From the NCBI GenBank assembly GCA_964244725.1, contig CAXTJQ010000010.1, forward strand, positions 42,695 to 106,694: DNA of 64,000 nucleotides. Reading direction: 5' to 3'. The stretch is from an uncultured Rhizobiaceae bacterium. Lineage in GTDB: Bacteria > Pseudomonadota > Alphaproteobacteria > Rhizobiales > Rhizobiaceae. A model generated the notes under the pieces. That model ran no database searches. It saw only the letters and a program-made list of their open reading frames with translations, and was not told the DNA's origin. Made by a program: the position numbers and the translations under genes. The first letter of the stretch is position 1. Each line of letters starts with the position of its first letter. This document shows, piece by piece, positions 27,441 through 51,718 of the stretch.

Positions 27441-29378
27441 TCAGGCCGTCGCCGCGACGGCGATCGCACGCGCGGGCGGGCCTTCCGCTTCGATCCCGAG
27501 CGCCGCGAGCGCCGTGGCGACGATATGCGGCGCGTTCAGTCCTGCGGTATCGTACATCGCGCGCGGCGTATCGTGATCCAGGAACACGTCCGGCAGGGTC
27601 ATGGTGCGGATGCGCAGCCCGCGATCCAGCCTGCCCGACGATGCCAGGAAATGCAGGGTCTGAGCGCCGAACCCGCCTGAAGCGCCTTCCTCGATCGTCA
27701 TGACGACCTGGTGATGCCGTGCGAGCTGCAGGATCAGCTGGTGGTCGAGCGGCTTGGCGAAGCGGGCGTCGGCGACCGTTGTCGACAGGCCCTTCGCCTC
27801 CAGCGTGGCTGCCGCCTTGAAGCACTCGCCGAGCCGCCCGCCGAGCGACAGGAGCGCGATCTTCGACCCTTCGCGCAGGATGCGTCCCTTGCCGATCTCG
27901 AGCGCCACGCCGCGCTCCGGCAGCGCAATGCCCTGGCCCTCGCCGCGCGGGTAGCGGAAGGCGGACGGGCCGTCGTCGATCGCCGCCGCCGTCGCGACCA
28001 TATGCACCAGTTCCGCCTCGTCGGCGGCGGCCATCACCACGAAGCCGGGCAGGTTGCCGAGATAGGCGACGTCGAAAGCGCCGGCATGCGTGGCGCCGTC
28101 GTCGCCCACGAGCCCCGCGCGGTCGATGGCGAACCGCACCGGCAGCTTCTGCAAGGCCACGTCATGGACGATCTGGTCGTAGCCGCGCTGCAGGAAGGTC
28201 GAGTAGATCGCGCAGAACGGCCGCATGCCGGCCGCGGCGAGTCCGGCGGCGAAGGTCACGCCATGCTGTTCGGCGATGCCGACATCGAAGAAGCGCGCCG
28301 GGAACCGCTTCTGGAACTTGTCGAGCCCGGTTCCCGCTCCCATGGCGGCGGTGATGGCCACGATGCGGCTGTCGGTCTCGGCTTCGCGAATCAGGCTGTC
28401 GGCGAAGACGCCGGTATAGGTCGGAGCCTTCGGCGGCGATTTCTGCTGCTGGCCGGTGACGATGTCGAAGCGGGCGACGCCGTGATATTTGTCCGCCGCG
28501 TTCTCGGCCGGAGCGTAGCCCCTGCCCTTCTCGGTCAGCGCATGGATGAGCACCGGCCCATCGGCGCGTTGGCGCACCGTGCGCAGCACGTGCAGCAATT
28601 GGTTCACGTCATGCCCGTCGACCGGACCGACATACGAAAAGCCGAGATCCTCGAACAGAGACCCGCCGACGATCAGATCCTTGACCAGGCCCTGTGCGCG
28701 TTCCGCGCCTTCGCGCAACGGCGGCGGCAGAAGCGACACCGAGCCTTTGGCCAACGCCTTGAAATCCTGGAACGGGCGCTCGGAATAAAGCTTGATCAGG
28801 TGTCGCGACATCGCGCCGACCGGCGGCGAGATCGACATGTCGTTGTCGTTGAGGATGACGATCAGCCGCTTGCCGAGATGGCCGGCATTGTTCATCGCCT
28901 CGTAGGCCATCCCGGCCGAGAGCGCCCCGTCGCCGATGACGCAGATCACGTCGCCCTTCTCGCCCTTGAGATCGCGCGCGACGGCGAAGCCGAGGCCGGC
29001 CGAGATCGAGGTCGACGAATGCGCAGCGCCGAAGGGATCGTATTCGCTTTCCGACCGCTTGGTGAAGCCCGAAAGGCCGCCGCCCTGCCGCAGCGTGCGG
29101 ATGCGCTCGCGCCGGCCGGTGAGGATCTTGTGCGGGTAGCATTGGTGGCCCACGTCGAAGATCAGTCTGTCGCGCGGCGTGTCGAAGACCGCATGGATCG
29201 CCACGGTCAGTTCCACCACGCCCAGGCTCGCGCCGAGGTGGCCGCCGGTGACCGACACGGCCGAGATCGTCTCGCTGCGCACTTCTCCCGCGAGCCGCAC
29301 CAGTTCGGTCGGCGTCAGGCGCTTCATGTCGGCGGGCGAGGAAATCCTGTCGAGGACGCTTCGGTCGGGTCGTTTCAT
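27441..29378 (-). CDS. dxs: 1-deoxy-D-xylulose-5-phosphate synthase
   Basis: [46 protein letters not shown] and [11 protein letters not shown]. Confidence 0.97.
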
Positions 29379-29491: not shown

Positions 29492-29535
29492 TGTAAACAA
29501 ACCTTTACACAGCAATGTGTCAATGTCGATTGATT
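29492..29535. promoter_or_regulatory. Tandem PpsR/CrtJ operator upstream of dxs
   Basis: Perfect box TGTAAACAAACCTTTACA (29492-29509), an 8-bp gap, then a degenerate box TGTCAATGTCGATTGATT (29518-29535). Confidence 0.8.
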
Positions 29536-29592: not shown

Positions 29593-30612
29593 TCAGCCCG
29601 CTGCGCCGCGAACTTGCGAGATCATCGCCTCGACATGCTCGATCGGCGTTTCCGGCGTGATGCCGTGACCGAGATTGAACACCAGGGGGCCGTCCGAAAG
29701 CCCGCCAAGGATCGTATCGACGCCCTCGCGGAGCGCCTCTCCTCCCGCGACGAGCCGCATCGGATCGAGATTGCCCTGAACCGCGCCGCCCGCCTGCAGC
29801 CGTCTCGCCTGCGACAGCGGCACGCTCCAGTCGAGGCCGAGCGCGTCGACGCCCGTCTTGTCCCGGAACGTGTCGTAGAGAGAACCCGCGCCCTTGGGAA
29901 AACCGATGATGGGAACTGCCGGATGGGCGGCCTTGACCTTGGCCACCATGCGCGCGACCGGCGCGACGCAGTACGCCTCGAAGGACCGCTCGTCGAGCAC
30001 GCCCGACCAGGAATCGAAGATCTGGACGGCGTCCGCGCCGGCTTCGATCTGACGGATCAGATAGCCGGCCGACTGGTCCGCGAGGATGCCGAGAAGCCGC
30101 TCCATCGCCTCGGGATGGCGATAGGCGAACAGCCGTCCCGGCGCCTGGTCGGGCGTGCCGTGGCCAGCGATCATATAGGTGGCGACGGTCCACGGCGCGC
30201 CGCAGAAGCCGATCAGCGCAGTCTCCGCCGGTAATTCCCGACGCAAACGGCGCACAGTCTCGTAGACCGGAGCCAGATGGCCATGGAACCCCCGCACTTC
30301 GATCCGGTCGATTTCCTCCGCCGAGATCGGCGTCATCAGCGGCCCGCGCCCCTCCTCGAAGCGCAGGTCGCGGCCGAGCGCGTGCGGGACCACGAGTATG
30401 TCGGAAAACAGGATCGAGGCGTCGAAACCGAAGCGGCGGATCGGCTGAAGCGTGACTTCGACCGCGAGATCGGGATTGTAGCAGAGGTCGAGGAAACTGC
30501 CCGCCTGCCTGCGCGTCTCCCGGTATTCGGGAAGATACCGTCCGGCCTGCCGCATCATCCAGATCGGCGGCGGGAAGACCGTCTCCCCGGACAGCACTTC
30601 GAGGAAGCGCAT
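29593..30612 (-). CDS. hemE: Uroporphyrinogen decarboxylase
   Basis: [38 protein letters not shown] and VFNLGHGI. Confidence 0.97.
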
Positions 30613-30812: not shown

Positions 30813-31262
30813 TCAGTTCGTCGCCGCCGCCTGGGCGAAAAGTTCCTCGTAATGCTTCTTGGCCTTGGGCTGCGGAATCTTCGTCAACGCAGCCTTGACC
30901 TCATCGAGGTTGACGGGCTTGCCCGCCACGACGACCGCGACCATGCCCATCGGCAGATGCGGCAGGCATTTGACCCCGTAGACGCCCTCGACATCGATCG
31001 TCATGGTGACGGGCTTGCCGGCCTTGCCCTTGAACTCCTTGCCGCCTTTCGGGAGCATGCCGGGCGTCGTTTCGGCAAGATGACCCGCGTCGGTTGGCAC
31101 GAAGGTGACGGTGTCGCCGACCTGCGCGGTGATGAAATCGGGTTCGAACACCATCGCGCCCTTCGCGCCCTTGTTCAGCATCTTGACCTCGTGGTCGGCC
31201 GCCAACGCGCCGTTCAGCATGAATGCGGTCAAGGCCGCGGCAACCATGGTTTGCTTTATCAC
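30813..31262 (-). CDS. Pseudoazurin (type-1 blue copper protein) with signal peptide
   Basis: GTG start behind a GAGGAGG RBS; mature N-terminus ADHEVKMLNKG..MVFEP; Cu ligands GH and C-LPH-LP-MGM. Confidence 0.9.
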   Translation of the reverse strand: MIKQTMVAAALTAFMLNGALAADHEVKMLNKGAKGAMVFEPDFITAQVGDTVTFVPTDAGHLAETTPGMLPKGGKEFKGKAGKPVTMTIDVEGVYGVKCLPHLPMGMVAVVVAGKPVNLDEVKAALTKIPQPKAKKHYEELFAQAAATN

Positions 31263-31428
31263 TTTCAGTTTCCTCCTCAGGGTTCTCGAAGGTTCACATG
31301 CCGGCTCGCTTACCGTGCGCTTGCACATGGTTCGCCGTCGAAGCGGAGAGGTAGCGCAGCAGGGGCCAATGTTCAACTCATTCCAAGAGCGCGATAAGGG
31401 GGACCGCCGGCGGCGCTTCCCGAAACGC

Positions 31429-31472
31429 TTGCCGACCAGGTTGACATGTCGTGGTGTAAAATGCCGGATGCG
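31429..31472. promoter_or_regulatory. Degenerate tandem PpsR-like site upstream of bchI
   Basis: Inner half-sites TTGACA (31441-31446) and TGTAAA (31455-31460) are 8 bp apart, as in the clear tandem boxes; the outer halves do not match. Confidence 0.4.
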
Positions 31473-31475
31473 CGC

Positions 31476-32501
31476 ATGAGTTCGAACTATCCGTTTTCGG
31501 CGATTGTCGGCCAGGAGGAGATGAAGCGCGCCTTGCTGCTGGCGGCGATCGATCCGACGATCGGGGGCATCCTCGTCTTCGGCGACCGCGGCACCGGAAA
31601 GTCGACCGCGGTGCGCGGCCTTGCCGGCCTGCTCCCGTCGATGACGGTGGCCGGCGACTGCCGCTACAATTGCGACCCCGCCGATCCGTCGCGCTATTGC
31701 GGCCGCTGCCGCGAGCAGGCGGCGGCCGGCGCGCTCAGGCGCCGCCAGATCGCGGTGCCTGTCATCGACCTGCCGCTCGGCGCGACGGAGGACCGGGTCG
31801 CGGGCGCGCTCGATCTGGAAAAGGCCCTCGTGTCCGGCGAGAAGGCCTTCGAGCCCGGCCTGCTCGCGGCCGCGCATCGCGGCTTCCTCTATATCGACGA
31901 GGTCAATCTGCTCGAGGATCACCTCGTCGACCTGTTGCTCGACGTCGCCGCTTCGGGGGTTAACATCGTCGAGCGCGAGGGCTTGAGCATCCGCCACGCG
32001 GCGCGCTTCGTGCTGATCGGCAGCGGCAATCCGGAGGAGGGGGAGTTGCGGCCGCAACTGCTCGACCGTTTCGGGCTTTCCGTCGACGTTGTTTCGCCCA
32101 GGGATGTCCCGTCCCGCGTCGAGGTCGTCAAGCGTCGCGACGCCTTCGATCGCGACCCCGCGCAATTCGCCGCAGGCTGGAAGCGCAAGGACGCGGCGCT
32201 GCGAACGAGGATCGGCAAGGCGCGCGGCTTGCTCGGCGCCATCGAGACGCCGGACGAGGTCCTCGAATTCGCCTCGACGCTCTGCCTGGCGCTCGGCGTC
32301 GACGGCCTGCGCGGCGAACTGACGCTGATCCGCACGGCCCGGGCGCTCGCCGCCCTCGATGGCAAGTCGCGGGTTGCCGCCGCAGACGTGCGTGCGATCG
32401 CCGTATCGGCCCTGAGGCATCGTCTGCGGCGCGATCCGCTCGACGAATCCGATTCCGGCAGTCGCGTCGAGCGGGCTCTGTCGGAAATGGCCGCCGCGTG
32501 A
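31476..32501 (+). CDS. bchI: Magnesium chelatase subunit I
   Basis: YPFSAIVGQEEMK, GDRGTGKST, LYIDEVNLL, GNPEEGELRPQLLDRFG and VDGLRGEL. Confidence 0.97.
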   Translation: MSSNYPFSAIVGQEEMKRALLLAAIDPTIGGILVFGDRGTGKSTAVRGLAGLLPSMTVAGDCRYNCDPADPSRYCGRCREQAAAGALRRRQIAVPVIDLPLGATEDRVAGALDLEKALVSGEKAFEPGLLAAAHRGFLYIDEVNLLEDHLVDLLLDVAASGVNIVEREGLSIRHAARFVLIGSGNPEEGELRPQLLDRFGLSVDVVSPRDVPSRVEVVKRRDAFDRDPAQFAAGWKRKDAALRTRIGKARGLLGAIETPDEVLEFASTLCLALGVDGLRGELTLIRTARALAALDGKSRVAAADVRAIAVSALRHRLRRDPLDESDSGSRVERALSEMAAA

Positions 32502-34264
32502 TCCAAACCCCGCCCGTCGAACTGCCGAGCCGCTGGGACGACGCCTTGCTCGCGGCCGCCTTGCTCGCGGTCGATCCCGATGGCCTCGCCGGCGTGCATG
32601 TGCGCGCCCGGGCGGGCGCGGTGCGCGACCGCTGGCTGGAGTGGGCCACAGCCCTCGTATCGCCGGATGCGCCGATCCGCCGCATCGCGGCCGGCATCCC
32701 GGAAGCGCGGTTGACGGGCGGCCTCGACATCGGCCAGACGCTTGAACATGGCCGGCCGGTCGTCGAGCGCGGCGTGCTGGCCGGCGCGGACGGCGGGCTG
32801 GTCGTGCTCGCGATGGCCGAGCGCGTCGAGATGTCGGCGGCGGCCGTTGTCGGCACGGCGCTCGACGATCGTTTCGTCAGGATCGAACGCGATGGGATTT
32901 CGACGCGGCAGCCGGCGCGGTTCGCGCTAATCGCGCTCGACGAGGGCATCGACGACGAAGGCCTTTCCGCGCCGCTCGCCGACAGGCTCGGGCTGCGCAT
33001 CGATCTGAATCCGATTGGCCTGCGCGCCACCGACGGCGGCGTGGATATCGCCGATGTCGGGCAGGCGAGGGCGCTTTTGCCCTCGGTGGCGATCTCCGAC
33101 GAGTTGATCGAGGCGCTATGCGCGGTAAGTCTCTCCGCAGGCGTCGCGTCCATGCGCGCGCCGCTTCACCTCGTGCGGGCCGCGCGGGCCGCCGCCGCGT
33201 TGCGCGGAAGTCGAACGGTTGGCGTGGAGGATGCGCGGACGGCGTTGCGCCTTGTCCTCGGCATGCAGGCGTCCGCGCCGCAGGACGCCCCAATGCCCGA
33301 AGAGAGTCGGCAAGACGAACAGCCGCCGCCCACCGAGGAGCCTGAACAGAATCAGGAGGCGTTGTCGGCGGACGCGCTGCAAGACATGCTCGTCGAGGCG
33401 GTGGAAGCCGTACTCCCCGAACATCTGCTCGCCGGCCTCGACACCGCCGCGCCACGGCGGCAACGGCGCGGAGAGGCCGGCAAGGCGGGCGCGATCCGCA
33501 ACAGGGCGCGGCGCGGGCGCGCCATCGGCACGAACGACAAGCCGCCGTTTCCCGGCGCGCGCCTCGACGTGCTCGCCACCCTGCGGCAGGCCGCGCCCTG
33601 GCAGCGTATTCGCGCGATGTCCGTCACCGCGCCGGGCACGGGCGGCCAGCGCCGCCTTCACATCCGCAAGAGCGATTTCCGCTATCTGCGGTTCCGGGAA
33701 AAGACCGGCACGACGGCCATCTTCGCGGTCGACGCCTCCGGATCGGCGGCGCTCGAACGGCTCGCCGAAACCAAGGGCGCGATCGAACTGATTCTGGCCG
33801 AGTGCTATGTGCGCCGCGATCAGGTCGCGCTGATCATCTTCCGGGGCTCGGCCTCCGAGACGTTGCTGGAGCCGACGCGTTCGCTGGTGCGCGCCAAGCG
33901 TAGCCTGTCGGCGCTTCCGGGCGGCGGCGGCACGCCGCTGGCGAGCGGGATTCTGGCGACCCTCGCCATGGCGATGCGTTCCGCCCGGGCCGGACAGAGC
34001 GTGGTGGCGGTCTTCCTCACCGACGGACGCGGCAATGTCGGTCTCGACGGCGGCACGATGAAGGCGCAGGTCGCCGCCGATACGGAGAAGGCGACGCGGA
34101 CGTTTCGGGCGGCGGGCGTGCGCGCGATCCTCATCGACACGGCGCAACGCCCTCATATGCGGGCCGAGACCCTGGCGCGCGATCTCGGCGCCGAATACCT
34201 CGCCTTGCCGAGAAGCGGCTCGCGGGCGGTGGCGCGCGAAATCGGCAGCCGCATGGAGGGCTGA
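32498..34264 (+). CDS. bchD: Magnesium chelatase subunit D
   Basis: Degenerate AAA N-terminus, acidic/Pro linker, vWA domain AVDASGS..RLAETKG and FLTDGRGN; GTGA overlap with bchI. Confidence 0.95.
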   Translation: MIQTPPVELPSRWDDALLAAALLAVDPDGLAGVHVRARAGAVRDRWLEWATALVSPDAPIRRIAAGIPEARLTGGLDIGQTLEHGRPVVERGVLAGADGGLVVLAMAERVEMSAAAVVGTALDDRFVRIERDGISTRQPARFALIALDEGIDDEGLSAPLADRLGLRIDLNPIGLRATDGGVDIADVGQARALLPSVAISDELIEALCAVSLSAGVASMRAPLHLVRAARAAAALRGSRTVGVEDARTALRLVLGMQASAPQDAPMPEESRQDEQPPPTEEPEQNQEALSADALQDMLVEAVEAVLPEHLLAGLDTAAPRRQRRGEAGKAGAIRNRARRGRAIGTNDKPPFPGARLDVLATLRQAAPWQRIRAMSVTAPGTGGQRRLHIRKSDFRYLRFREKTGTTAIFAVDASGSAALERLAETKGAIELILAECYVRRDQVALIIFRGSASETLLEPTRSLVRAKRSLSALPGGGGTPLASGILATLAMAMRSARAGQSVVAVFLTDGRGNVGLDGGTMKAQVAADTEKATRTFRAAGVRAILIDTAQRPHMRAETLARDLGAEYLALPRSGSRAVAREIGSRMEG

Positions 34265-34269
34265 AGGCG

Positions 34270-35193
34270 ATGGCGGGCGAGGCGGGCAGGCCGGTCTGGT
34301 CGGTCGAGGGTCGGGACTGGCCGAACCGCGAGCATAGCCGCTTCGTTTCGGCCGGCGGCCTTTTCTGGCATGTGCAGGAGATGGGCTCGGGTCCGAAGCT
34401 TCTGCTCCTGCACGGAACGGGCGCCGCGACCCACTCCTTCCGCGATCTCGCGCCGCTTCTGGCCGGCGATTTCCGTCTGCTCGCGCCGGACCTCCCCGGC
34501 CACGGCTTCACGGCCATGCCGGGAAGCAGCGGCCTTTCGTTGCCCGGCATGGCGCGGCTCGTCGGCGGGCTGCTGCGCGAGACCGATTTCGCCCCCGACA
34601 TCGCCGTCGGGCATTCGGCCGGCGCGGCGGTCCTGGTCGAACTCGCGCTCGCCGGCGCGATCTCTCCCAAGATGATCGTGGCGATCAACGGCGCGCTGCT
34701 GCCGATACGCGGCGCTTCATTGTTCTCGCCGTTGGCCAAGCTCCTGTTCCTCAACCCGCTCGCGCCAAAACTGTTTGCCTGGCGGGCGCTCAGCCACGAC
34801 GCGACCAAACGGTTGATCGAAGGCACCGGGTCCGCCATCGACCCGCGCGGCCTGGACCTGTACCAGCGTCTTTTCCGCAAGCCCGGCCACGTCGCGGGCA
34901 CGCTCGGCATGATGGCCAACTGGGACCTCGACGGCCTTCAGCGCAGGATCGGGACGCTCTCCTGCCCGCTCGTCTTAATGACCGGCGCCGGCGACAAGGC
35001 GGTCGCGCCCGGCGATGCGCGCATGGTTTGCGCGAAGGTGAAAACGTCGCGGGTCGTCGCGTTGCCCTACGGCGGCCATCTCGTCCATGAGGAAGAGCCG
35101 GCCCGCCTCGCGGCGCTCGTCACGGGCTTCGCGCAGGACGCCGGCGTCTTTCCGGTCGGCGAAACAGAGCGTTTGTCAAAACCAATTGACTGA
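34270..35193 (+). CDS. bchO: BchO alpha/beta hydrolase
   Basis: DWPNREHSRFV..WHVQ, LLHGTGAATHS and GHSAGAA; canonical position after bchD. Confidence 0.93.
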   Translation: MAGEAGRPVWSVEGRDWPNREHSRFVSAGGLFWHVQEMGSGPKLLLLHGTGAATHSFRDLAPLLAGDFRLLAPDLPGHGFTAMPGSSGLSLPGMARLVGGLLRETDFAPDIAVGHSAGAAVLVELALAGAISPKMIVAINGALLPIRGASLFSPLAKLLFLNPLAPKLFAWRALSHDATKRLIEGTGSAIDPRGLDLYQRLFRKPGHVAGTLGMMANWDLDGLQRRIGTLSCPLVLMTGAGDKAVAPGDARMVCAKVKTSRVVALPYGGHLVHEEEPARLAALVTGFAQDAGVFPVGETERLSKPID

Positions 35194-48791: not shown

Positions 48792-48852
48792 ACCCTTTCA
48801 GATGGAGCGCTGAACCGCTTCGACGAAGCCCTGCATGGGGGAGGCTCATCTC

Positions 48853-49677
48853 ATGGCGATGCTCAGTTTTGAACGCAAATACCGCGTCAGGGGCGGCACC
48901 CTTGTCGGCGGGGATCTTTTCGACTTCTGGGTCGGCCCGTTCTGGGTCGGCTTCTTCGGCGTGACGACGATCTTCTTTTCCGCGCTCGGCATCGCTCTGA
49001 TCGCATATGGCGCCGCGCTCGGACCGACGTGGAACCTCTGGCAGATATCGATCAATCCGCCGGCGGCCGAATATGGCCTGAGCTTCGCGCCGCTCAAGCA
49101 AGGCGGCCTCTGGCAGGTGATCACGATCTGTGCGCTCGGCGCGTTCGGTTCATGGGCGCTCCGGCAGGCGGAAATCGCCCGCAAGCTCGGCATGGGCATG
49201 CACATCCCCTGGGCCTTCAGCTTCGCCATCCTGGCCTATTTTACGCTGGTCGTCATCCGGCCGGTGCTGCTCGGGGCCTGGGCGAACGCCTTTCCCTACG
49301 GCATCATCACCCATCTCGATTGGGTGTCGAACACTGGCTACCAATACGGCAATTTCCACTACAACCCGGTCCACATGATCGCCGTGACCTTCTTCTTCAC
49401 CAACTGCCTGGCGCTGGCGCTGCACGGGTCGCTGATCCTGTCGGCGGCCAATCCGAAGAAGGGCGAGTTCGTCAAGACCGCCGAACACGAGAACACCTAT
49501 TTTCGCGACACGATCGGCTACTCGATCGGCACGCTGGGCATCCACCGACTCGGCCTGTTCCTGGCCGTTTCCGCATCCTTCTGGAGCGCGGTCTGCATCG
49601 TGATCTCCGGACCGCTCTGGGCCGAAGGCTGGCCGGAATGGTGGGACTGGTGGCAGCGCATCCCGATCTGGAAGTGA
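48853..49677 (+). CDS. pufL: Reaction centre L subunit
   Basis: [31 protein letters not shown] and HGSLILS. Confidence 0.98.
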
Positions 49678-49692
49678 GGGGAGGACAGGACA

Positions 49693-50616
49693 ATGGCTGA
49701 GTACCAAAACATCTTCACACGCGTCCAGGTCCGGGGCGGAGCCGACTACGGCGTGCCGATGGCGCCCGGGATCTGGACCCGACAGGGCACGCCGACTTTC
49801 TCCTACTGGCTGGGCAAGTTCGGCGACGCCCAGATCGGCCCGCTCTACCTCGGCACGCTCGGCCTCGCCTCGCTGATGTGCGGCTTCGTCGCGATCGAGA
49901 TCATCGGGCTCAACATGCTCGCCTCGGTCAATTGGGACCCGCAGGAGTTTATCAAGCAGTTCTTCTGGCTGCAGCTCGCCCCGCCGCTGCCCGAGCATGG
50001 GCTGAAGATCATCCCGCCGCTCAAGGAAGGCGGCTGGTGGCTGATGGCCGGCTTCTTCCTCACCTCCTCCATCCTTTTGTGGTGGGCGCGGATGTATCGC
50101 AGGGCGCGGGCGCTCGGCATGGGTACGCACGTCCCCTGGGCGTTCGCGGCGGCGATCTGGCTCTATCTCGTTCTCGGCTTCATCCGGCCCGTGCTGATGG
50201 GGTCGTGGAGCGAGGCGGTGCCCTTCGGCGTCTTCCCGCATCTCGACTGGACGAACAATTTTTCGCTCAACCACGGCAATCTCTTCTACAATCCCTTCCA
50301 CATGCTCTCGATCGTCTTCCTCTACGGTTCGGCGGTGCTGTTCGCCATGCATGGCGCGACCATCCTGGCCGTAAGCCGGCTTGGCGGCGAGCGCGAGATC
50401 GAGCAGATCGTCGATCGCGGTACGGCGGCCGAGCGGGCGGCCCTGTTCTGGAGGTGGACGATGGGCTTCAACGCGACGTTCGAGTCCATCCACCGCTGGG
50501 CCTGGTGGTTCGCGATCCTCTGCCCGCTCTGCGGCGGCATCGGCATCCTGCTCAGCGGAACGGTCGTCGACAACTGGTTCGAGTGGGGCCAGAAACACGG
50601 CCTCGCGCCGATGTAG
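49693..50616 (+). CDS. pufM: Reaction centre M subunit
   Basis: [36 protein letters not shown] and [12 protein letters not shown]. Confidence 0.98.
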
Positions 50617-50676: not shown

Positions 50677-50749
50677 GCCGATGCCTGTCTGACATTCGTC
50701 TTGTTCGACATTGCCTGCCGCGGCAGGATTTGATCGGGAGAATGGCGCC

Positions 50750-51718
50750 ATGTCCTACTATTCGATCACGATCCGACGGGTATCGAATGGGTCGTTCACC
50801 GACGCGCTCGATATCGGCTCGGTCCGCTACCTGAAAATTCCCGACGGCGCCCGCATTCCGACGCCCGCCCACGCGATCGCCAGGACGGACTGGGTCAAGG
50901 ATATCCTTGCGCTGTTCAGCGCCGAGAGTGCGAAGCCGAGCGGCGACGTGGCGTTCTTCGTGCACGGATACAACAACACGCTGGACAATATCTGGAAGCA
51001 CCAGAAACAGCTTCACGCGGGCATCAACCGCGACGGCTTCAAATGTCCGGTCATCGCCTTTGACTGGCCGAGCGACGCGGCGACGATCGCCTACCTCGAC
51101 GATCTCGACCATGCGGTAAAAACGTCGTTGCTGCTCGTCAACAGCGCCATCAAGCTTTTCGTCGCGACGCTTCGCCAGGACTGCGATATCCGGGTCCATG
51201 TCGTCGGGCACTCGATGGGGGCGTTTCTCATTCGTGAGGCTTTCGACCATGCCGATGGCGGCTCGACGGCGGGCGCGAACTGGACGGCGGGCCAGCTCGC
51301 CCTTTTCGCGGGCGACGCAAGCGCGACGAAATTTTCGAAGACCAATACGGAGACGGAAAGTCTCTACCGCCACTGCTACAGGCTGACGAACTACTTCAGC
51401 GGCTATGACGAGGTGCTGCAGATATCCAACGTCAAGCGCCTCGGCTTCGCGCCGCGTGTCGGTCGCATCGGTCTGCCGCCCGACGCGCCGGCCAAGGCCG
51501 CGAACGTCGACTGTTCGCGACACTATGCCGAACGCTACGGGATAGCCGGACAGCCGCTTTCAAAAACGCATTCCTGGTATTTCGAAGACGACGATTTCCT
51601 GCACGACCTCCGGCTGACCCTTCGCGGCGCCATCGACAGGTTCAAGATTCCGACTCGCGCCAACGGCCCCTTGGGTGAGCAGGAACTGCTGACCGGCGTT
51701 CGCAGCGGCGGCGCGTGA
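50750..51718 (+). CDS. DUF900-like alpha/beta hydrolase
   Basis: FFVHGYNN, AFDWPS, HVVGHSMG, RLTNYFSGYD.VL.ISNVKR and H-SWYF motifs; start MSYYS at 50750. Confidence 0.8.
   Translation: MSYYSITIRRVSNGSFTDALDIGSVRYLKIPDGARIPTPAHAIARTDWVKDILALFSAESAKPSGDVAFFVHGYNNTLDNIWKHQKQLHAGINRDGFKCPVIAFDWPSDAATIAYLDDLDHAVKTSLLLVNSAIKLFVATLRQDCDIRVHVVGHSMGAFLIREAFDHADGGSTAGANWTAGQLALFAGDASATKFSKTNTETESLYRHCYRLTNYFSGYDEVLQISNVKRLGFAPRVGRIGLPPDAPAKAANVDCSRHYAERYGIAGQPLSKTHSWYFEDDDFLHDLRLTLRGAIDRFKIPTRANGPLGEQELLTGVRSGGA

Follow-up and report, generated by a model that had tools for sequence, protein, structure and literature searches.

The Pseudoazurin Gene and Its Product

The window is a 64,000-nucleotide stretch of DNA from an uncultured Rhizobiaceae bacterium (assembly GCA_964244725.1, contig CAXTJQ010000010.1, positions 42,695 to 106,694). 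It carries a photosynthesis gene cluster in which a gene for pseudoazurin is divergent from bchI. The original prediction, made from the sequence alone, placed a secreted type-1 copper protein with four ligands in the interval 30813-31475. The gene itself occupies 30813-31262; the rest of that interval is a 213-bp spacer, and 31475 is the last base before the likely start of bchI. The predicted export and copper site hold, as the signal peptide and all four ligand codons can be read directly.

30813-31262, minus strand: pseudoazurin gene of the photosynthesis-cluster type (TIGR02375 score, genome scan, model and clade membership)
31200-31262, minus strand: Sec-type signal peptide, residues 1-21, cleaved between ALA and AD (read from the translation)
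31080-31082, minus strand: codon of copper ligand His40 (sequence read)
31077-31082, minus strand: codons of His40 and the clade-specific Leu41 (sequence read and column statistics)
30966-30968, minus strand: codon of copper ligand Cys78 (sequence read)
30957-30959, minus strand: codon of copper ligand His81 (sequence read)
30942-30944, minus strand: codon of copper ligand Met86 (sequence read)
30942-30968, minus strand: C-terminal ligand loop Cys78-Leu-Pro-His81-Leu-Pro-Met-Gly-Met86 (sequence read)

The coding sequence has 149 codons and starts with GTG, 8 nt after a GGAGGA. The 149-residue precursor gives a mature protein of 128 residues. The signal peptide is MIKQTMVAAALTAFMLNGALA, followed by ADHEV; its n-region, h-region and cleavage site are recognisable by eye in the translation. 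Aligned with the pseudoazurin crystallised from Achromobacter cycloclastes (PDB entry 1bqk), the mature N-terminus falls at residue 1. The protein is predicted to be periplasmic by way of this cleavable signal peptide.

The protein scores 137 bits against the pseudoazurin equivalog model TIGR02375, above the cut-off of 109.85, and it also matches PF00127. A scan of the whole genome finds this single pseudoazurin copy. The score against the plastocyanin model TIGR02656 is 29.4 bits, well under the cut-off of 87.85, and the structural TM to plastocyanins is about 0.5. Against the halocyanin family model the protein likewise falls far under the cut-off. Amicyanin and plastocyanin are rejected as assignments because the family scores do not fit.

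The ligands His40, Cys78, His81 and Met86 align with those of 1bqk and 1paz with the C-x2-H-x4-M spacing of a type-1 site, and they are invariant across an alignment of 35 sequences. An AlphaFold2 model built on 35 relatives (pLDDT 89.5) shows a cupredoxin β-sandwich with a two-helix C-terminal extension, the helices spanning residues 119-126 and 132-148. Among solved structures, the top 27 Foldseek matches are without exception pseudoazurins (TM 0.86-0.94, normalised on the target). Denitrifier pseudoazurins (Achromobacter cycloclastes 1bqk, Alcaligenes faecalis 1paz, Paracoccus pantotrophus 1adw and Sinorhizobium meliloti 3tu6) are about 45-50% identical (E about 2e-31) and share the fold with its two C-terminal helices, the four copper ligands and a Sec signal peptide. 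The window gene encodes a true pseudoazurin.

Position in the Photosynthesis Cluster

The genes that define the position of pseudoazurin in the cluster are the following.

31476-32501, plus strand: bchI, divergent from the pseudoazurin gene (with bchD and the bchO-like gene, Pfam matches to Mg_chelatase, AAA_lid_2, VWA and Abhydrolase)
32498-34264, plus strand: bchD
34270-35193, plus strand: bchO-like hydrolase
29593-30612, minus strand: hemE (Pfam URO-D), downstream of the pseudoazurin gene on the same strand
27441-29378, minus strand: dxs (Pfam DXP_synthase), downstream of the pseudoazurin gene on the same strand
48835-49677, plus strand: pufL (PF00124, E-value 2.6e-98)
49693-50616, plus strand: pufM (PF00124, E-value 1e-107)
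50747-51718, plus strand: DUF900 alpha/beta hydrolase (PF05990 match), in the place of pufC after pufM

The genes bchI, bchD and bchO face the opposite way from the pseudoazurin gene, as had been predicted for bchI. The likely start of bchI is the ATG at 31476, MSSNYPFSAIVGQ. A terminator scan finds no terminator-like site between the pseudoazurin gene and hemE. Further genes along the cluster include crtF, bchC, bchXYZ, pufL and pufM. A role in pigment biosynthesis beside bchI and hemE is rejected because pseudoazurin is exported and those enzymes are cytoplasmic.

The genes pufL and pufM encode the core of the reaction centre, about 19 kb from the pseudoazurin gene. The earlier observation that no pufC follows pufM is borne out. 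The next open reading frame (ORF) is the DUF900 hydrolase, whose translation contains no CxxCH motif and is not a cytochrome, and PF02276 (PufC) has no match anywhere in the genome. On these two grounds the reaction centre is one without the tetrahaem PufC, and a mobile donor would have to reach its special pair directly.

Relatives Carry Cytochrome c2 in the Same Slot

The comparison covers 400 genomes of the same GTDB family. Among these, 59 carry pufM, 30 of them with pufC and 29 without, and the clusters closest to the window (PufM 85-94% identical) all lack pufC. The bchI neighbourhood was compared for four genomes with PufM 90-94% identical (G292, G290, G325 and G143). All four encode a secreted cytochrome c of 131-137 residues with one CxxCH, divergent from bchI and upstream of dxs or hemE-dxs. 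This protein matches PF00034, and its closest NCBIfam model is cytochrome c-550 CycA. Four other genomes (G334, G406, G156 and G253) have a homologue of this cytochrome c2 18.5-19 kb from pufM, the same spacing as for the window pseudoazurin. At least eight sister clusters carry a cytochrome c2 gene in the slot of pseudoazurin, and at least 15 of the 59 phototrophs have a cluster-resident c2-like gene 1-26 kb from pufM.

The original prediction suggested looking for pseudoazurin at this position in related clusters; it is present there in relatives, and elsewhere the same position is a c2 slot. Pseudoazurin occupies the slot in G283 (Rhizobiales bacterium 65-79, locus L011) and in G142 (Aureimonas leprariae, locus L012), and in G311 (locus L129) it lies directly upstream of bchI on the same strand. 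In each of these three genomes a c2 query gives one weak match (E 1e-13 to 1e-15, 35-38% identity) in a frame of 229-256 residues, resembling what an anchored cytochrome yields in the window genome. None of the four pseudoazurin-type genomes (the window genome, G283, G142 and G311) has a soluble c2 by these searches. Cytochrome c2 and pseudoazurin are mutually exclusive occupants of one position, and the pseudoazurin gene is positionally equivalent to the gene of the established donor in relatives. In other genomes of the family, pseudoazurin genes typically adjoin nirK. G142 lacks nirK, and the cluster pseudoazurin is its only one; G283 keeps a second, nirK-adjacent pseudoazurin beside the cluster copy.

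In a tree of BchI, c2-type and pseudoazurin-type loci are interspersed, and A. leprariae groups with a c2-bearing congener (support 90/96). The interspersed order hints at cassette exchange; support is too weak to count events.

A Dedicated Pseudoazurin Clade

The four cluster-linked genomic copies group together (support 100/99) in a tree of 111 pseudoazurins, as a single clade nested among nirK-, nosZ- and cbb3-linked pseudoazurins of Rhizobiales. A search of 5.8 billion proteins adds 26 further 90%-identity clusters, 67-87% identical to the window protein, so the clade comprises at least 27 sequence clusters. All 26 carry G-H-L-(A/V)-(E/Q)-(T/S) and G-K-A-G-K-(P/E). The boundary is sharp, as the next matches revert to K-(G/S)-H-(D/N). 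The gene context is informative for 11 clusters (locus L141 is uninformative), and in 10 of the 11 the gene adjoins bchI, in two orientations.

bchI divergent from pseudoazurin, then hemE with or without dxs: the window, L011, L134, L135 and L140
bchI divergent from pseudoazurin, then dxs: L143-L145
bchI divergent from pseudoazurin, with tspO and ppsR nearby: L012, L136 and L137
Membrane ORF of 80-83 residues, then pseudoazurin, then bchI: L129 and L142
Not beside bchI, with hemC and DUF2189 genes nearby: L138/L139 (P0027)

Locus L134 is a 185-kb metagenome contig with the whole side of the cluster. Among 12 genes of the clade the median pairwise dN/dS is 0.16, at dS values of 0.6-1.3 where synonymous sites are near saturation. 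These values and contexts indicate that the bchI linkage is long-maintained and selected, not a recent accident. A one-off insertion, named with the original prediction as an outcome that would speak against it, is rejected, since the same clade holds the same place in many genomes and metagenomes.

A related explanation is that the gene is a remnant of denitrification, placed by chance in a variable junction and playing no part in photosynthesis. The bchI-dxs junction does vary: some clusters keep hemE, others lack it or retain a decayed copy, and in some relatives tspO takes the place of hemE-dxs. The clade also nests within nirK-linked pseudoazurins. Set against this, the genome retains no denitrification enzyme, G283 holds its separate nirK-linked pseudoazurin besides the cluster copy, and the clade combines its breadth of at least 27 sequence clusters with near-constant bchI linkage and a dN/dS of about 0.16. 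We regard a chance remnant as highly improbable.

The decay of hemE can be seen at L119:637-774 (G290), where a short hemE-like remnant (46 residues, 50% identical) separates the c2 gene from dxs. The ORF of 80-83 residues encodes two predicted membrane helices and is found directly upstream of pseudoazurin at L129:170-421, L142:1742-1984, L138:2864-3115 and L141:1897-2148. It belongs to one sub-clade, is 59-69% identical between loci and has no NCBIfam match. Beside the window pseudoazurin gene there is no homologue of it.

Residue and Charge Changes

Alignment columns of the clade were compared with those of 109 other pseudoazurins. The changes are as follows.

Position 41, beside ligand His40: Leu in the clade; Asn or Asp in the others (Leu in about 1% of 109)
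Position 38: Ala or Pro in the clade; Lys in 82 of the 109 others
Positions 60-63: Ala-Gly-Lys-Pro in the clade; Ile-Asn-Glu-Asn type in the others
Position 66: Met in the clade; Val in the others
Before Lys110: Ser-Pro insertion in the clade; none in the others

Leu41 is present in all four cluster-type sequences and in all 26 further clusters. The mature proteins of the clade have a net charge of +1 to +3 (pI 8.05-9.05), while other pseudoazurins have a median of -3 (pI 5.7). Four of the displaced c2 proteins have a net charge of +2 to +5 (pI 8.6-9.3). Asn41Leu, the loss of Lys38, the AGKP loop at 60-63 and the basic charge thus separate the window clade from the denitrifier pseudoazurins.

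Leu41 sits at the second-sphere position equivalent to Asn47 of azurin. The azurin substitution Asn47Leu raises the potential by about 110 mV, and Lys38 of pseudoazurin is needed for docking to NirK. Pseudoazurins linked to nitrite reductase have midpoint potentials of +230 to +270 mV; that of the window protein is predicted to be clearly higher, and a Leu41Asn change would lower it. Our search of the open literature found no paper on Lys38 mutants of pseudoazurin. Substitutions of azurin Asn47, which follows the first His ligand, shift the potential by -68 to +161 mV (PMC5698706, PMC12071310). From the residue pattern, Asn41Leu, the loss of Lys38 and the gain in positive charge would together bring both the potential and the docking surface closer to those of c2.

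Control Region between Pseudoazurin and bchI

The original prediction described a shared promoter region with PpsR-like half-sites. An everted pair of half-sites is present; a pattern search of the spacer for the canonical PpsR palindrome (TGT-N12-ACA) finds none. Two elements of the spacer are recognised by comparison of intergenic regions.

31441-31460, no strand assigned: everted half-site pair TTGACA-N8-TGTAAA, upstream of bchI
31348-31376, minus strand: promoter-like TTGAAC-N17-TACCTC of the pseudoazurin gene

For this comparison all spacers were oriented from bchI. Some 15-35 bp ahead of bchI, the everted pair (TTGACA-N8-TGTAAA/TGTCAA) is conserved, with an equal offset in c2-type and pseudoazurin-type loci. 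The window, L011, L140, L118 and L121 carry it, and L119, L134 and L143 carry forms that differ by one or two changes. It could serve as the promoter of bchI or as the operator of another regulator. The longest ORF of bchI begins at an ATG at 31446, which falls within this conserved element; the alignment of relatives (M..YPFSAIVGQ) favours the ATG at 31476.

On the pseudoazurin side, a PpsR-like site TGTC-N10-TTAC[A/G] is followed by a promoter element TTGACA-N16/17-TA(G/C/A)CT(T/C), at offsets 136 and 163 in L011 and L140, which carry pseudoazurin, and in L119, which carries c2. The two elements recur at nearly equal offsets in L118, L120 and L121 (c2) and in L134, L012 and L136 (pseudoazurin). 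The shared offsets indicate that replacement left the promoter module of the donor gene in place. The promoter-like element of the window is positionally homologous to the TTGACA-N16/17-TAGCTT that precedes the c2 gene, or the pseudoazurin gene, of relatives. A scan of the region for the strict sigma-70 consensus and for intrinsic terminators gives no match. The spacer of the window, shorter by 44 bp, has no PpsR-like site, and neither does that of L143.

Canonical PpsR palindromes occur elsewhere in the window, at 29492, 40568/40594 and 42715/42741. The first is a single palindrome, TGTAAACAAACCTTTACA, at 29492-29509 between hemE and dxs, ahead of dxs. It suggests that dxs has its own photosynthesis-regulated promoter.

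Electron Carriers of the Genome and Proposed Role

The genome (3.89 Mb in 29 contigs, 95.6% complete) was searched with family models and a six-frame CxxCH inventory. The family models find no HiPIP, NirK, NosZ or CCP/MauG, and tblastn finds no nirK, nnrS, ccoN, ccoP or nosZ. The CxxCH inventory yields no soluble class I cytochrome or c2-like protein and no haem protein of the cd1 or cNOR type. The absence of c2, HiPIP, nirK and nosZ noted earlier for the window thus extends to the genome as assembled. The c-type cytochromes found are cytochrome c1, cytochrome c', a membrane dihaem protein, a five-haem protein of 618 residues, a DUF1111 dihaem protein and a PuuD-like protein. To these is added an N-terminally anchored class I cytochrome c at C1:5556-6461, CycM-like or cytochrome-cy-like with a Pro/Ala-rich tail, which is the sole homologue of the slot c2 in the genome. 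Motif searches find Rieske/bc1 and a single aa3-type oxidase, and no cbb3 oxidase.

None of the customary denitrification or peroxidase partners of pseudoazurin (NirK, NirS, NosZ, cNOR and CCP) is encoded in the genome. Such partners define a customary role and not a structure, so membership of the pseudoazurin family stands. This sets the window gene apart from denitrifier pseudoazurins, whose genes adjoin nirK, nnrS or nos genes, whereas it lies in a photosynthesis cluster. A carrier for denitrification is rejected because no partner enzymes are encoded. As the genome lacks both the customary partners and the established soluble donors, pseudoazurin is counted as a candidate donor to the reaction centre.

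We consider it fairly likely that in this aerobic phototroph pseudoazurin shuttles electrons from bc1 to the PufC-less reaction centre, as c2 does in the sister clusters. The proposal of a copper carrier between bc1 and a purple-type reaction centre without pufC, made in the original prediction, draws this support from the equivalence with the c2 slot, the mutual exclusivity and the clade. In the proposed cycle, cytochrome c1 of the bc1 complex would reduce pseudoazurin, and the reduced protein would diffuse through the periplasm. It would then dock on the periplasmic face of the PufL/PufM reaction centre, exposed where no PufC caps it, and re-reduce the photo-oxidised special pair, closing cyclic electron flow. 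Both the reduction by bc1 and the docking are steps that we infer from gene content and position. Copper would probably replace haem iron in this return of electrons to the reaction centre. Sparing of iron, the motive named in the original prediction, may be a reason for such a replacement. The protein would have descended from denitrification-type pseudoazurins of Rhizobiales through a single recruitment into the photosynthesis gene cluster, into the c2 slot and behind the same promoter module, and would since have been kept there under purifying selection.

Several observations weigh against a role at the reaction centre. The missing 4% of the genome could hold a c2 gene. In the three relatives, the absence of a soluble c2 is judged from a single query at E <= 1e-12. 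The PpsR-like site is missing in the window (and in L143), which makes co-regulation of the window copy with puf uncertain and its control by PpsR doubtful. One clade member, P0027 (L138, L139), is not beside bchI, and the BchI tree that suggests repeated swaps is poorly supported. Two further points concern other carriers and oxidases: the genome encodes the anchored class I cytochrome c, which shares 36-42% identity with the slot c2, and pseudoazurin could mainly feed the aa3 oxidase.

The anchored cytochrome could itself be the real donor. Membrane-tethered cytochrome cy donates to the reaction centre and supports photosynthesis in Rhodobacter capsulatus. Pseudoazurin would then be accessory or conditional, for example used only when iron is scarce or copper plentiful, or would serve an unrecognised periplasmic enzyme. 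However, 58 of the 59 phototrophs sampled have a homologue that answers the c2 query, and genomes with a cluster-resident c2 or a pufC are among them, so the anchored cytochrome does not make a dedicated soluble donor dispensable in the family. It is also encoded far from the photosynthesis cluster, on contig C1 and not C10, and an anchored donor leaves the exclusion of c2 and pseudoazurin in one slot unexplained. We judge this arrangement unlikely.

The second possibility is that pseudoazurin serves respiration in general, carrying electrons from bc1 to the aa3 oxidase, and that its place in the cluster reflects co-inheritance. The genome has one haem-copper oxidase (aa3), no cbb3 and no soluble cytochrome to serve it, and aerobic phototrophs respire constantly. 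Yet the CycM-type anchored cytochrome is the usual link from bc1 to aa3 in related alphaproteobacteria, and the PpsR-type promoter module of relatives and the tight bchI linkage in two orientations point to photosynthesis-linked control. Supply of the oxidase is in any case compatible with a role at the reaction centre, because c2 does both in Rhodobacter. A purely respiratory shuttle seems improbable, to about the same degree as an anchored donor.

Relation to Known Carriers

To our knowledge, every donor accepted so far for the reaction centres of purple bacteria is an iron protein, either a cytochrome (c2, c8 or cy) or HiPIP. Cytochrome c2 (CycA) resembles the cluster pseudoazurin in gene slot, compartment, size and basic charge and, in most relatives, in the promoter module. 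It differs in fold and cofactor, which are unrelated (haem c protein against copper cupredoxin), and its donation to the reaction centre is established, whereas that of pseudoazurin is a proposal. The closest parallel to such an exchange is that of plastocyanin and cytochrome c6, a cupredoxin and a small c-type cytochrome that are interchangeable between a bc-type complex and a reaction centre. A swap of haem for copper carrier of this kind would here take place at a proteobacterial type II reaction centre. Unlike that pair, the window protein is not a plastocyanin, its acceptor would be a type II reaction centre and not photosystem I, and c2 and pseudoazurin alternate between genomes while plastocyanin and c6 are regulated within one cell. 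The auracyanins of Chloroflexus and Roseiflexus, also blue copper proteins, have likewise been proposed to supply a type II reaction centre with electrons. However, they belong to another cupredoxin subfamily and an unrelated phylum, are membrane-tethered and work with alternative complex III, not bc1.

A precedent for the exchange itself comes from Paracoccus. There pseudoazurin and cytochrome c550, which is homologous to c2, are the two proteins that supply cd1 nitrite reductase with electrons in vivo, according to Pearson 2003 as cited in PMC6872814. For the denitrification enzymes of Paracoccus, pseudoazurin and a c2-type cytochrome are established as interchangeable donors, and by analogy we count this as a precedent. 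For Erythrobacter sp. JL475 a pseudoazurin gene is mentioned in passing as "inserted" in the photosynthesis cluster (PMC4919336), and in the open literature we searched this remark is the sole link between pseudoazurin and a photosynthesis cluster. Like that strain, the window bacterium has its pseudoazurin in the cluster; its lineage is Rhizobiales, in the same GTDB family as Aureimonas, and its slot is the one beside bchI.

We slightly favour a broader interpretation. A dedicated pseudoazurin subfamily, marked by the Gly-His-Leu motif, the loss of Lys38 and a basic surface, would be the sole soluble donor to a proteobacterial type II reaction centre and the first copper-based cyclic carrier in purple or aerobic anoxygenic phototrophs. 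Cytochrome c2 and pseudoazurin would be exchangeable cassettes at one locus, and similar swaps would have occurred independently in several alphaproteobacterial lineages. If so, the donor side of anoxygenic photosynthesis would have a copper option as the oxygenic one does, which bears on the iron scarcity met by aerobic phototrophs. It would also explain the "missing" c2 or pufC in genome surveys of phototrophs. Asn41Leu, the loss of Lys38 and the charge shift would then be a natural experiment in retuning a carrier for a new partner. A cultured carrier exists in Aureimonas (Plantimonas) leprariae YIM 132180, so the question is directly testable.

Other Observations

The 618-residue protein is encoded at C1:370146-372002 on the minus strand. 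Its N-terminus carries a membrane segment, and the sequence includes five cytochrome c domains of class I, with five CxxCH motifs.

Divergent pseudoazurin-like genes occur in nine phototrophs of the family that lack pufC and nirK (G022, G176, G269, G074, G199, G130, G248, G328 and G404); the neighbourhoods recovered contain no photosynthesis genes and are otherwise uninformative. In three of them, of one genus (G022, G176 and G269), the gene lies within 300 bp of a contig start (L122:231, L123:286 and L133:288), and the genomes have only an anchored-type c2 homologue or few matches. These three genes may represent another case of a copper donor.

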